A DNA stretch of 10,087 nucleotides from a virus (IMGVR_UViG_2734482790_000005:1-10087), one strand, 5' to 3'. Counted from the first letter of the stretch, positions 1,654 through 9,507 are shown. Made by a program: numbers and translations. The notes: a model not told the origin generated them from the letters alone.

Positions 1654-1684
1654 TCACTGTCGTCATTTCGTTAAGGAAGAAGTT

Positions 1685-1933
1685 ATGAATGAAAAAGTTT
1701 TTGGAGCAAAAGCCATTTAGACTCCAAAGGTTTTTGCGCTTGTTTACCTGGTAATTGGCATTTTCCTCGTTTTTTCTGTTGTCTCAATGAATTTCACGGC
1801 GATTACGATATCGGTGGTAAGTGCATTGCTTTTACGTGTGCTTTATGAGTTCCTAATGAACTCATTCAAGGCGACTGAGCATCTTTACAGGATCGCCGAA
1901 TCTCTTGACCGTAATGGATCCAGCGATAAATAG
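1685..1933 (+). other. Candidate small ORF in an AT-rich insert: strong SD + ATG, in-frame TAG after 11 codons, then a ~70-codon hydrophobic open frame ending at a second TAG
   Basis: AGGAAG at 1674-1679, 5 nt before ATG 1685; reads MNEKVFGAKAI then TAG at 1718-1720; same frame continues TPKVFALVYLVIGIFLVFSVVSMNFTAITISVVSALLLRVLYEFLMNSFKATEHLYRIAESLDRNGSSDK to TAG 1931-1933. The internal ATG at 1787 has no recognisable SD. Hydrophobicity may partly reflect T-richness. Confidence 0.3.
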
Positions 1934-1956
1934 ATAAGTCATTTCAGTGCATATGT

Positions 1957-1983
1957 AAACCGCCGACATGGCGGTTTTTTTAT
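1957..1983 (+). terminator. Rho-independent terminator (+ strand)
   Basis: Stem AAACCGCC (1957-1964), loop GACAT (1965-1969), stem GGCGGTTT (1970-1977), running into a T-tract TTTTTTTTATTT from 1975. On the opposite strand the hairpin is preceded by A-run, so it is unidirectional. Confidence 0.75.
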
Positions 1984-1996
1984 TTCCGGAGGCGTG

Positions 1997-3400
1997 ATGC
2001 CGTCAATTATCCAGGACGCAATAACTTCTCTTTTGGGGGGAGATACCAGCGATGACTGGCAGGGGCAGTTACGGCCCAGCTCATTCAGAGGTGTGCCATT
2101 TGCAATTGTTGCTGAGGAAGGGAGCCACGGCCGACGCCAGGCGGTACATGAATATCCCTACCGTGATACAGCCTGGATAGAGGATATCGGGCGGGCAACA
2201 CGGCGATTTGTTATTCGCGGTTTCTTGATCCAGAACAGCCAGGTTTACGGCGGCGGCGATGCTATCACGCAGCGCCAGTCACTGATTGAAGCCTGTGAAC
2301 AAAAAGGTAGCGGTACGCTTGTCCATCCGACACTGGGCGAATTAACGGTTTCCATCCCTGAGAATGGTTTGCGTATTTCCGGTTCGATGGAGAACGGGCG
2401 AGTATTTGAATTTACCCTGATGGCAATTGAATCAGGGCTTAAAGTGTTTGCTGTCACGGGCAGTACCGTTGCAGGCGCCACGGTGAAAACCAACTATCTG
2501 AAACTGGTCAGCACTGCTGTGCTGAGCACGATTGCCAGAGTTAAGAGTGAAATCCGCGGTGTCACACAGGCTATAAACACCATCAGAGGCACGGTCACGT
2601 TCTGGACTAACATGGTTGACAGCACCATCAGTCAGGTCACGAATCTCAGCAATGTCCTGAACTCCACGTTCGGGAATACCCGGTACGGACGTTACAGTAA
2701 AGGCTCTGTGGGCGGTAGTTCCTCTGCTGTTGCTGGCAAATCGTCAGTTGCTGATGTGGATGATGAGAGAGCACTGGCTGACAAGGTAACAGCCCAGTCG
2801 GTAATGGACCGGAAAAATGTTACCGACAGGTCGAGCCAGCTTAGCAGCTCCAACACACCTGATGAGTTTGTCCAGGGCGTCGCCGACGTGGTAAACGCAA
2901 TTCTTAACAGCGCCGGCAGCGTTAATGACCGAATCACAGCGCTGGAAAAACTGGCTAATTCAATCAGCACGGAGTACCAGCAGTCCGACAGCAGCAAAGC
3001 GATTTCGGCGACCATGAACACGCTGATTGTTGTGCTATGTACTGGTGCCATGACCAGTGCCGCTGCGGACTCCAGACCAGCCAGTACAGACGAGGCAGAA
3101 GAGTTAACTCAACGAGTTTCTGTGCAACTTGATACGGCGCTGGTTCTGGCTGGAGACCGCGCAGACGATGATATGTATAACGCGCTTCTCGCCGTCAGAT
3201 CGGCATTCCTTTCTACGATGAGTGAGCGTGCTTCTGGTCTGAGCGAGCTTCTGCAGGTTACTACCGCTCAGCCGCTTCCGGCGCTGACGCTGGCAAACCG
3301 ATTATACCAGGATGCCACCCGTGCAGATGAACTGGTACAGGAAGCGCGCGTACCGCATCCGGCGTTTATGCCGACAACCATGAAGGTACTGAGGCAATGA
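1997..3400 (+). CDS. DNA circulation protein (Mu gpN / gp43-like)
   Basis: N-terminus carries the SFRGVPF ... HEYPYRD ... EDIGR pattern typical of the Mu N family; size (467 aa from ATG 1997) and position before the baseplate hub fit. GGAGG at 1988-1992 precedes ATG 1997; GTG 1994 is the alternative start given in the ORF track. Confidence 0.8.
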   Translation: MPSIIQDAITSLLGGDTSDDWQGQLRPSSFRGVPFAIVAEEGSHGRRQAVHEYPYRDTAWIEDIGRATRRFVIRGFLIQNSQVYGGGDAITQRQSLIEACEQKGSGTLVHPTLGELTVSIPENGLRISGSMENGRVFEFTLMAIESGLKVFAVTGSTVAGATVKTNYLKLVSTAVLSTIARVKSEIRGVTQAINTIRGTVTFWTNMVDSTISQVTNLSNVLNSTFGNTRYGRYSKGSVGGSSSAVAGKSSVADVDDERALADKVTAQSVMDRKNVTDRSSQLSSSNTPDEFVQGVADVVNAILNSAGSVNDRITALEKLANSISTEYQQSDSSKAISATMNTLIVVLCTGAMTSAAADSRPASTDEAEELTQRVSVQLDTALVLAGDRADDDMYNALLAVRSAFLSTMSERASGLSELLQVTTAQPLPALTLANRLYQDATRADELVQEARVPHPAFMPTTMKVLRQ

Positions 3401-7282: not shown

Positions 7283-7918
7283 ATGCTCCGAATCGGGCAA
7301 GTCGAAGCCACTGCAACGCAGGATGGCAAATATACTGATGGAAGTGTTGCTGGTGGTATTGCCGCAACGAGGCTGCGGGCAGCAGCGTTTAATGCCATGC
7401 AGGAAGAGTTAGCGCATATCGTAGAGTCAGCAGGATTGGCGCTCGACATTAACGATATGACTCAGGTTTTAAAAGCCATTCAAAAACTCACACTGAGCCG
7501 TGCAAACCCATTTGCCGATATCAAATCAGATGGTGCAGCGGCGATTTCTACGGCTCTCACAAACCTTGGTTTGGGAGAAGCGGCTAAAAGAAATGTAGGG
7601 ACAGGGGCGAATCAGATACCTGATATGGGTAGTTTTATGCTTTCTGCTTCAGTTCCTGGATATCAAAAATTGCCATCCGGTTTAATTATTCAATGGGGGC
7701 CAATTGATGTTCCGCTGACGCCTCAGGACACAGTAACCTATTTTCCGATTGCATTTCCGAATAGATGTCTGCGGGTATTTGCGACTCAGGATTACACTCC
7801 CGGCAGTGCAAATGTTGGCTATATAGCTTGTGCCGGTTATAACCAGGACCCGGTGAAATTTATTTCCAGAGCAGGCGTACCCGGTATCGGTGCTTCATTT
7901 TTCGCATTAGGGTGTTAA
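7283..7918 (+). CDS. Tail fibre protein, currently expressed form (constant N-part 7283-7567 fused to variable C-part 7568-7918)
   Basis: GAGGA at 7270-7274, 8 nt before ATG 7283. The 26-bp invertase crossover site lies inside the gene at 7554-7579, so the first ~95 codons are constant and the rest is inside the invertible segment. Followed by a tail-fibre assembly gene. Confidence 0.8.
7554..7579 (+). other. Left crossover site for the serine invertase (gix/hix/pix-like)
   Basis: CTCTCACAAACC TT GGTTTGGGAGAA: two 12-bp half-sites around a 2-bp core (7566-7567). Half-sites resemble the Hin/Gin half-site consensus TTATCAAAAACC (9/12 each, from my recollection of that consensus). Its inner half is the exact reverse complement of the inner half of the right site. 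Confidence 0.8.
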
Positions 7919-7944
7919 TTTCTTTTAACTTTATGGAGTGAAAA

Positions 7945-8385
7945 ATGAATTACATATATTCCGCGACTACAAACTCTTTCTATCCCTTGGAGATGAAAGA
8001 GGATTACACGCAAGCTGACTCATGGCCAGATGATGCTGTTGAAGTTGATGAGCAAGTGTATATTGAGTTTTCCGGATTACCGCCGAAAGGAAAAATCCGT
8101 ATCGCTGGAGAAAATGGTTTTCCTGCATGGTCTGAAATTCCACCACCAACACATGAGGAACAGATTGCTGCAGCCGAACTGAAAAAGCAGCAATTGATTA
8201 ATCAGGCCAACGATTATATGAACAGTAAACAATGGGCTGGTAAAGCGGCTATTGGTCGTCTGAAAGGTGAGGAACTGGCGCAATATAATTTGTGGCTGGA
8301 TTATCTGGACGCACTGGAGCTGGTCGATACTTCCAGTGCGCCAGATATTGAATGGCCTACTCCTCCGGCAGTTCAGGCCAGATGA
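7945..8385 (+). CDS. Tail fibre assembly protein (Mu U / Tfa-like), partner of the currently expressed fibre
   Basis: 146 aa; N-terminus MNYIYSATTNSFYPLE and C-terminal LDYLDALELVDTSSAPDIEWP motif are typical of Tfa chaperones; GGAG at 7935-7938 precedes ATG 7945. Confidence 0.85.
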   Translation: MNYIYSATTNSFYPLEMKEDYTQADSWPDDAVEVDEQVYIEFSGLPPKGKIRIAGENGFPAWSEIPPPTHEEQIAAAELKKQQLINQANDYMNSKQWAGKAAIGRLKGEELAQYNLWLDYLDALELVDTSSAPDIEWPTPPAVQAR

Positions 8386-8959
8386 CATCCGGCGCGGTGC
8401 TGGTATCTGTTGCCGTCACCGCGTCAATGTAATCCAGCACAGTGTTAAGTCGGGAGGTCTCTGCCTGCATCAGCTCCCGCCCAGCCCGTAATTTCAGTTG
8501 AATCAGACTAATGGAAGCCATTGCAGTATCAATCAGTGACTGACGCTGTGCTTCTGCCGCGTCTACTGCGGCGTGATGCTGTGCCTCAGTATCGGTCACC
8601 CATTTCTCACCATCCCATTTATCGTATGGCGTTAATGGGGCGATAGTGGTTGTATTTTCGGGGTAATCACCCGGAGTTGTGATTTCTTTGGCGTCTCCCG
8701 TTTCGGTGTTATAGACGATTTCTCCGCGATGGTCTGGCACATATTCCCATGAGTTTAAATCCGCAGAGCGGCAGATGGCATAACCAGCTTTATATGTTCC
8801 TGGTGCATCTAAACAGGAACATGCCGGAATACCGACACCAACAGCAAGATATTCAGTTGATGTGGAAATATATTCTCGTGTTTCACCATTATAATTATAG
8901 ACAGTAATATCCCCCGCCTTCGTGGCAATAAACTCGCTATTTAATACGGCATTATCCAT
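8357..8959 (-). CDS. Tail fibre assembly protein, alternative (Mu U' / TfaE-like)
   Basis: 200 aa; N-terminus MDNAVLNSEFIATKAGDITVYNYNGETREYISTSTEYLAVGVGIPACSCLDAPG and C-terminal LDYIDAVTATDTSTAPDVIWPELPEE are typical of Tfa proteins; start overlaps the upstream stop in TAATG. Confidence 0.85.
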   Translation of the reverse strand: MDNAVLNSEFIATKAGDITVYNYNGETREYISTSTEYLAVGVGIPACSCLDAPGTYKAGYAICRSADLNSWEYVPDHRGEIVYNTETGDAKEITTPGDYPENTTTIAPLTPYDKWDGEKWVTDTEAQHHAAVDAAEAQRQSLIDTAMASISLIQLKLRAGRELMQAETSRLNTVLDYIDAVTATDTSTAPDVIWPELPEE

Positions 8960-9486
8960 TATGCAGCCCTCACGATGTAATTAAATGAAAGGTTACGAGG
9001 GCGCATTGATATCCATGCCCCGGTAAAATTATCCTCCGCTGTCCTTTGAGTACCCGTTATGGAGTTATCTGCTGATGCAGGAACATAATCGCTATTATTT
9101 CCTGCTTTAGGATTAGCTGGGTTTCCAACAGTTATAACAGAATCAGCAGTAGCAAAAGCGATACCTACTTTGACATTAGTATTCAGATCGTAACCGTAAT
9201 AATCCTGCAAAGCTGTACGAATAAATGTTGCAGCCTGACCACTTAGCAATGAACGCCCCGTATCAATCCCTCTAGAATCATCCCAGCCACGAATAAACTC
9301 ACCACGTAAATCAGGCAATTTATTTGTCGGGTAAGCCTTTGCCAGTACCGGGTATTCTTCAGCAGAAAAAGCTGCTCCGTTGCATTTCAGCCAGCCTGTT
9401 GGCGGAGTGGCGGAAGGCCACGGAACAGGCACACCAACGGGTAATGCCGAACCTTCTCCCAAACCAACCTTTTTTATAACCATCAA
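8959..9486 (-). CDS. Alternative tail-fibre C-terminal segment (S'v-like), silent in this orientation
   Basis: Contains tail-collar-like motif PVGVPVPWPSATPPTGWLKCNGAAFSAEEYPVLAKAYP. Its first codons (9468-9486) lie in fixed DNA outside the segment and have no SD, so it is not an independent gene; after inversion codons from 9465 downward would fuse in frame to the constant part 7283-7567. Confidence 0.75.
   Translation of the reverse strand: MMVIKKVGLGEGSALPVGVPVPWPSATPPTGWLKCNGAAFSAEEYPVLAKAYPTNKLPDLRGEFIRGWDDSRGIDTGRSLLSGQAATFIRTALQDYYGYDLNTNVKVGIAFATADSVITVGNPANPKAGNNSDYVPASADNSITGTQRTAEDNFTGAWISMRPRNLSFNYIVRAA
9454..9479 (+). other. Right crossover site for the serine invertase
   Basis: TTCTCCCAAACC AA CCTTTTTTATAA; core AA at 9466-9467 equals the left core TT when inverted; reverse complement TTATAAAAAAGG TT GGTTTGGGAGAA shares one identical half-site with the left site, the same arrangement as hixL/hixR. 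Confidence 0.8.
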
Positions 9487-9507
9487 AAATCTGGTGATGC
9501 TTCGCCG

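Follow-up and report, generated by a model that had tools for sequence, protein, structure and literature searches.

Among the closest described systems is gp15 of phage HK97, an inner-membrane superinfection-exclusion moron (YebO-like) that is dispensable for growth, has its own terminator and is absent from related phages (PMC3594210). By family, the gene considered here falls with Pfam DUF4282 (PF14110), for which a full-text literature search gave no paper and no published function was found. The locus lies in a 10,087-nt stretch of viral DNA (IMGVR_UViG_2734482790_000005:1-10087, one strand, 5′ to 3′), hereafter the window, that belongs to a lambdoid prophage with a Q antiterminator, a lambda-like head and a Mu-type tail, integrated beside tRNA-Pro and yejM. 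A preliminary description had drawn attention to an AT-rich block between the tail tape-measure (TMP) gene and the Mu N-type gene, in which a small hydrophobic ORF is interrupted by an amber codon, and had offered three readings of it: a nonsense mutation has inactivated the gene, the gene relies on amber suppression, or there is no gene. As set out below, the block very probably holds a genuine accessory gene with an ancestral TGG at the amber position, of which the window allele is a null through TGG to TAG; this strength attaches to the identity of the gene and to its null status, not to its function.

Results

An optional AT-rich cassette between the tape-measure and N genes

The 3′ part of the tape-measure gene, which begins before the window does, fills positions 1–1653 of the + strand; one of its regions is transglycosylase-like. 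It matches PHROG 2276 (E 9e-110, 'tail length tape measure protein'), ends in TGA 1651–1653 and corresponds to a 1929-nt CDS in the PGAP annotation that likewise stops at 1653. The TMP is probably muralytic, because residues 266–437 of the protein (roughly nt 900–1420) match 'endolysin' and 'tail injection transglycosylase' PHROGs and because Pfam SLT is matched by the TMPs of diverged relatives. The downstream neighbour is the Mu N-type DNA circularisation/baseplate gene (PF07157, E 2.8e-30; + strand, 1997–3400), which PGAP starts at ATG 1997 and not at GTG 1994 as first supposed. Between the two genes, the interval 1654–1993 has a GC content of 0.406, vs 0.535 for the N and baseplate genes.

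The preliminary description took TMP and N to abut normally, with a 340-bp AT-rich block set between them here. The low GC content of the block holds, but the cassette begins earlier, within the last 60 TMP codons; likewise the block is indeed absent from relatives, but those that lack it (prophages OW1E2 and AW1.7) keep a 68-nt TMP–N gap with the same terminator. When the tail region was compared in 33 complete E. coli genomes, the block was present in 22 and absent from 11. OW1E2 is close to the window, with few substitutions, until ∼1473 and is of the AW1.7 type from there on; the AT-rich cassette therefore spans roughly 1474–1956 and includes an AT-rich alternative set of the C-terminal 60 TMP codons (1474–1653, + strand, GC 0.40) that travels with the insert. 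An 8-bp direct repeat, GTCATTTC, is found at 1662–1669 and again at 1938–1945, and the 276-nt spacing of its copies agrees exactly with the length of the segment that OW1E2 and AW1.7 lack.

The small gene is followed by an intrinsic terminator at 1957–1985 (+ strand; stem-loop 1957–1977 with a 9-bp stem and a 3-nt loop, then a T run) that marks the TMP/N boundary. It is kept in most of the diverged loci scanned as well as in the insert-less prophages, which suggests that the tail operon of this phage group has a set point at which a transcription unit ends, although Q antitermination presumably overrides it; in lambdoid phages, Q-modified late transcription reads through terminators. The small gene is the last of a sheath–tube–chaperone–TMP unit, directly before the terminator. 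A candidate sigma-70-like promoter (ATGATA-17-TATAAT, 1583–1611, + strand) matches at 10 of 12 positions; two such sites were found vs 1.4 expected in shuffles, and promoter scans of four diverged loci gave neither a counterpart of the 1583–1611 site nor a conserved promoter. Autonomous 'moron' transcription is therefore not established. In the Juhala/Hendrix sense of the term, the block does lie between genes that are adjacent in related phages (22/33), and its base composition (GC 0.40 vs 0.535) is unlike that of its neighbours. The label 'moron-type' given to it at the outset fits an optional block of differing GC; the promoter-like site is at chance level and unconserved, and the terminator is not insert-specific.

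Within the block, the amber-interrupted gene occupies 1685–1933 (+ strand). A Shine–Dalgarno (SD) sequence, AGGAAG (1674–1679, + strand), unchanged in all alleles compared, precedes ATG 1685 with a 5-nt spacer, and the frame then runs for 11 codons (MNEKVFGAKAI) to TAG 1718–1720 and for 70 further open codons to TAG 1931–1933, all in agreement with the preliminary description. The overlapping +1-frame ORF from ATG 1689 (1689–1754, + strand, 21 codons, MKKFLEQKPFRLQRFLRLFTW), whose start lies 9 nt from the same SD, was confirmed too. ATG 1787, which had been named as the sole internal ATG and as lacking an SD, indeed has none (TCTGTTGTCTCA ATG), but in-frame ATG 1856, GTG 1814, GTG 1838 and TTG 1826 also exist; ATG 1856 is likewise without an SD (the internal starts inspected for one being ATG 1787 and ATG 1856). 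From ATG 1787 runs the longest canonical ORF left in the window allele, 48 aa in length (1787–1933, + strand), which would encode the second transmembrane (TM) helix and the C-terminal helix. An imperfect 14-nt inverted repeat (1693–1706/1722–1735, 79% complementary) brackets the first TAG and takes in a run of five T's (T5, 1731–1735, + strand); it is probably a by-product of coding for the KVFG and TPKVF motifs. On shuffling of the 340 nt, 22% of shuffles yield at least 70 open codons in some frame, so that ORF length is not above chance and the status of the gene rests on homology instead.

Homology and predicted structure of the small protein

The read-through product matches DUF4282 at an E-value of about 1e-4 (22.7–23 bits), and P0001, an intact homologue from Enterobacter roggenkampii, scores 20.9 bits, both below the gathering score of 27. 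The relation is made transitively through intermediates: a profile of 9 intact homologues retrieves relatives, and PF14110 is matched by 21 of 25 aligned family members at E ≤ 1e-3 (best E 9.7e-12). A profile search of 1.84 billion cluster representatives gave only 24 relatives of the small gene. PHROG 12129 matches both P0001 (E 3.4e-11, residues 6–77 on profile positions 2–77 of 79) and gp19 of Edwardsiella phage GF-2 (E 2.4e-37). To judge from these profile matches, the gene family is a narrow, mostly phage-borne divergent branch of DUF4282, namely PHROG 12129. The homology crosses the stop, PHROG 12129 covering residues 6–77 and GF-2 gp19 aligning from residue 7.

The intact homologues found by database search are 79–83 residues long and occur at the same junction in related phages. 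P0001 and P0002 (E. coli) are the closest, both 96% identical and with Trp at the amber position, and those of 51–73% identity (P0007, P0012, P0013 and P0014) all lie between TMP and N in the same Mu-type tail module. Among homologues, pS is 0.7–0.98, i.e. synonymous sites are saturated, whereas pN is 0.24–0.36, and omega is about 0.12–0.17 where calculable; saturated pS with low pN implies that the intact gene is real and under purifying selection. Two of the diverged relatives have a further gene between TMP and the small gene (L019 3366–3944, L021 3375–3941), of ∼190 aa and without a match in Pfam, and the TMP/N junction therefore accumulates accessory genes. The block DNA had no match among 50,697 phage records, and tblastn against phages found GF-2 alone. 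Sequence searches of NCBIfam and the PDB yielded nothing of note; in a Foldseek comparison with viral structures no hit reached E ≤ 0.001, and what came up were generic helical hairpins; and the minus-strand ORFs of 20–35 aa in the block have no homologues.

The family alignment conserves F-x-F-x-x-(I/L/W)-T-P-K, Y21, R51, E55 and F-K-x-x-E-x-L-x-R-I. The product of the intact gene combines a conserved motif near its N-terminus, F-G-x-K-x-I-W-T-P-K, with two TM helices of variable sequence and a C-terminal helix that is again conserved (LRVLYEFLMSSFKATEHLYRIAE). The two hydrophobic stretches first noticed in the read-through product are borne out by the AlphaFold (AF2) model, a helical hairpin of H3–34 and H37–76 (mean pLDDT 81), and by a hydropathy peak over residues 15–45. 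The N-terminus carries a net charge of +2, and both the inter-helix loop, of 5 residues, and the C-terminal tail are neutral; this charge distribution suggests that both termini are probably cytoplasmic. Homology, allele comparison and the AF2 model together point to an 82-residue DUF4282-like two-helix membrane protein, the gene for which would be a pseudogene in the window allele.

Alleles at the amber codon

Alignment to related prophages, as had been proposed, gave a sense codon, TGG, at 1718–1720 in near-identical loci. Over the block the P0001 loci differ from the window at three positions only, namely 1719 (A/G, i.e. TAG vs TGG), 1860 and 1919, the last two differences being non-synonymous; because these loci carry TGG (Trp12), the stop goes back to one G>A transition at a Trp codon. 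The codons found at this position in relatives are TGG, CTA or ATT (Trp, Leu or Ile), and TAG is confined to one shallow clade.

The 22 insert-bearing complete E. coli genomes are all at least 99.7% identical over the block, and 21 of them are amber: 14 are 100% identical to the window, and the other 7 are single-mismatch genomes called amber by inference from the one read among them (MLI104K1, TAG). The remaining genome, NCTC9040, has TAT (Tyr) and is the sole one of the 22 in which PGAP annotates a CDS. The IMG/VR census combined an exact-flank scan, which is biased to the window haplotype, with a C-terminal peptide-pattern scan that gave the same picture, and its 32 loci comprise 24 TAG/T5, 1 TAG/T6, 3 TAT, 2 TGG and 2 diverged but intact; the Citrobacter youngae type strain is TAG/T5. 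The TAT alleles have AAC at 1860 and TCC at 1919, the markers of the amber clade, and occur on two different upstream haplotypes; because of these markers, they derive from TAG and not from TGG. The Enterobacter-type T6 allele (P0006) has one extra T in 1731–1735 and is otherwise identical to the window; the contigs that bear it, at least 19 in number, come from Enterobacter cloacae and from metagenomes. With the additional T the TAG is avoided, because the ATG-1689 frame, the first 15 codons of which form the new N-terminus, is joined to the body of the gene in an 81-aa ORF without the conserved N-terminal motif.

The window also carries an invertible tail-fibre segment of the Mu G/P1 C type, with 36-nt inverted repeats (7545–7580 and 9453–9488) that have an AAACC..GGTTT core. 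On the + strand (7283–8385) it carries the C-terminal end of a gp53-like fibre together with a gene for tail-fibre assembly, on the − strand (8357–9486) an alternative assembly gene and a collar-domain fibre end, and a resolvase/invertase gene (PF00239, 9380–10087) follows. In strain ECONIH4 the segment has the opposite orientation and a different content. Outside the window, at L052 5277–7213, the prophage gene for a DNA cytosine methyltransferase is frameshifted and a gp53-like fibre fragment is truncated, and several accessory genes have therefore decayed in the ECONIH4 copy of the prophage. An internal TAG (..TGG ATC TAG CGG..) also interrupts a second small prophage gene, near the tRNA-Pro end and again outside the window (L052 37374–37613; NZ_CP026399.1 5042373–5042612); PGAP flags it as 'internal stop', and relatives have GAA there. 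Strain EC2641 has the amber block and an intact second gene, and the two ambers are thus unlinked. Systematic amber suppression and a common 5-methylcytosine deamination origin of both TAGs were each considered in view of this second gene and rejected, since its TAG replaces GAA, which needs two changes, and is unlinked to the first.

Constraint in the amber clade

In the amber clade (28 loci), the small ORF has five variants, all of them non-synonymous and none synonymous: 1720 G>T, 1764 T>A and T>G, 1874 A>T, and 1931 T>C, by which the normal stop is lost. For N plus P in the same loci, the synonymous variants number 34 and the non-synonymous ones 17 (Fisher p = 0.0069 vs the small ORF; p = 0.046 when the reversion and the stop-loss are left out). 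The 0:5 spectrum indicates relaxed constraint; it rests on few events, and could alternatively reflect diversifying selection. Nucleotide diversity is alike in the three genes (0.002–0.005), and because pi is only about 0.004, an intact downstream frame is expected from the youth of the allele alone. Moreover, because N and P stay under purifying selection in these loci, the phage lineage is viable without the protein.

Discussion

We conclude that the window gene is an ordinary decaying accessory gene and not a recoding signal, its allele being null or near-null and in neutral decay. A G>A change has turned Trp12 (TGG) into an amber codon (TAG) in the window lineage, and ribosomes starting at ATG 1685 would therefore release an 11-residue peptide, the membrane protein being absent, or made in traces by read-through only. 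Carried by a successful prophage lineage, the null allele has become widespread in E. coli, Citrobacter and Enterobacter and probably now evolves without constraint, some descendants having regained an ORF by TAG>TAT or by a +T frameshift that recruits ATG 1689. Since amber is by far the commonest allele, trace read-through or the 48-aa remnant could be relevant. In favour of a small membrane-protein gene inactivated by a nonsense mutation, the first of the three readings in the preliminary description, are the intact 82-aa alleles with TGG, the purifying selection on homologues, the homology that crosses the stop and the absence of the block from some prophages.

Each of the competing accounts has some observations on its side. 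An amber codon that acts as an expression throttle, with UAG read-through (context UAG-A) or a host suppressor giving enough of the 82-aa protein, would fit the prevalence of the TAG allele across genera and the intact SD, ATG and downstream frame in 24/24 TAG/T5 IMG/VR loci. Stop-codon read-through is documented in bacteria, where it depends on the +4 base, with UAG intermediate between UGA and UAA (PMC5289835). The position is nevertheless a sense codon (Trp, Leu or Ile) in close and distant relatives, so that the stop is not conserved, and Tyr revertants exist; a tRNA search of the window and the rest of the prophage gave only the tRNA-Pro at the attachment site, and hence no suppressor tRNA. 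UAG read-through is normally low, the 0:5 variant spectrum, stop-loss included, looks unconstrained, and the intact downstream frame is accounted for by allele age. We therefore regard a throttle as unlikely, and dependence on amber suppression, the second of the original readings, finds no support. A programmed −1 frameshift or transcriptional slippage at the T5 run, yielding low levels of an 81-aa protein as in the T6 alleles, draws on the exact overlap of the ATG-1689 and main frames at the T run, on the fusion that a genomic +T gives in at least 19 contigs, on the 9-nt distance of ATG 1689 from the SD and on the weak hairpin (1693–1706/1722–1735) around the site. G-UUU-UUG, however, is not a canonical X-XXY-YYZ heptamer, five T's are probably too few for slippage to be efficient, the fusion puts other residues in place of the conserved FG.K.IWTPK motif, the hairpin arms are unconserved in diverged loci as read from the alignment, and gain of a T at one of ∼four homopolymer runs would be a neutral indel of an ordinary kind, all of which makes such a mechanism highly improbable. 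For programmed recoding of either kind, the stop or shift site is unconserved in relatives, and neither a canonical slippery heptamer nor a suppressor tRNA was found.

The 48-aa product from ATG 1787, comprising TM2 and the conserved C-terminal helix, is very unlikely to be the active one: its ORF (1787–1933) is intact, keeps the most conserved segment (LRVLYEF...HLYRIAE) and is called by gene callers on 16 contigs (P0011), but it has no SD, is without TM1 and the nearly invariant TPK motif, and takes in both the non-synonymous change 1874 A>T and the change 1931 T>C that abolishes its stop. That the block is non-coding, i.e. a spacer, a regulatory RNA or a gene-less insertion remnant, is scarcely credible, although PGAP annotates nothing there in two amber genomes inspected feature by feature, the blastn hit tables for the remaining 19 amber genomes are likewise empty of features at the block, and ORF length is, as noted, no argument. 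Against it stand the PHROG and Pfam relationships and the intact homologues under purifying selection at the same junction, which refute 'not a gene at all'; in an Rfam search no family reached threshold, the best match being the terminator resembling an sRNA model (29 bits vs a gathering score of 51). A bolder account, which we consider doubtful, would see repeated off/on switching under selection, and not plain decay, in the series TGG to TAG to TAT or +T, and in the DUF4282-type hairpins that follow TMPs (Mu-, E217- and siphovirus-type tails) an unrecognised, widespread TMP-linked class that blocks or modulates injection.

Returning to the reading of a decaying accessory gene, the role of its intact product can be approached from gene position. 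Relatives repeatedly sit directly after unrelated TMP genes, and because of this the intact protein might have an inner-membrane role tied to tape-measure-mediated DNA entry, with exclusion of related phages like that of HK97 gp15; we offer this tentatively, as the likeliest single role but at distinctly less than an even chance, the rest of the probability being shared by other lysogenic-conversion or late-cycle accessory roles. P0020 lies directly 3′ of a TMP_3 gene in a siphovirus-type module, P0019 directly 3′ of a TMP_3 gene in an E217-like tail, and GF-2 gp19 starts at the base right after the TMP stop codon, with P0021, in a baseplate module, and P0025, in a non-phage context, as exceptions to the linkage. 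An exclusion role is read from position, and the predicted topology, with both ends cytoplasmic, does not obviously fit a periplasm-facing block; the PADLOC defence models gave no hit at E ≤ 0.1. The small gene does resemble the known tail-region morons, because it is dispensable, membrane-embedded, AT-rich and variably present.

The locus is a documented case of prophage accessory-gene decay in which one transition made a null allele that then became the majority form in E. coli, at a gene that annotation pipelines neither call nor flag as a pseudogene. Prophages that are nearly isogenic carry the natural alleles TGG, TAG, TAT and +T, which form a ready-made allelic series, and the recurrence of phage DUF4282/PHROG 12129 downstream of unrelated TMPs provides a concrete candidate for a TMP-linked exclusion or injection function.

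Among known systems, the Tab tail-assembly blocker was rejected as an analogue, since its gene lies between terminase genes and no membrane segment is mentioned in its paper. Class II holins share the two TM helices, the charged C-terminus and the length of about 80 aa, whereas the present gene lies outside the lysis cassette, the lysozyme and lysis protein of the prophage being encoded elsewhere, downstream of the antiterminator Q gene; its family membership is DUF4282, and there is no significant fold match. Like HK97 gp15, it is a gene for a small inner-membrane protein beside TMP in the tail operon, followed by a terminator and variably present, a likeness known here from sequence and position. 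However, gp15 has 62 aa and one TM segment and is encoded upstream of TMP, whereas the window gene encodes 82 aa with two TM segments, lies downstream and is a null allele; the two proteins have no detectable homology (hhalign probability 0.6%). GF-2 gp19 is a true homologue (36% identity over 77 residues, E 6e-11), likewise encoded directly after a TMP or 'lytic tail protein' gene, but is intact, with Ile at the amber position and no gap after TMP; the GF-2 TMP is unrelated, and the accessory genes Arc and Ant follow gp19. With scores of 21–23 bits, under the gathering score of 27, the window product and its closest intact relative stand apart from core DUF4282, whereas with DUF4282/PHROG 12129 at large they share the length of ∼80 residues, the F-x-F-x-x-(I/L)-T-P-K-I motif, the two TM helices and the C-terminal helix R..E...F-K-N-N-E-Y-L-R-R-I-A-E.
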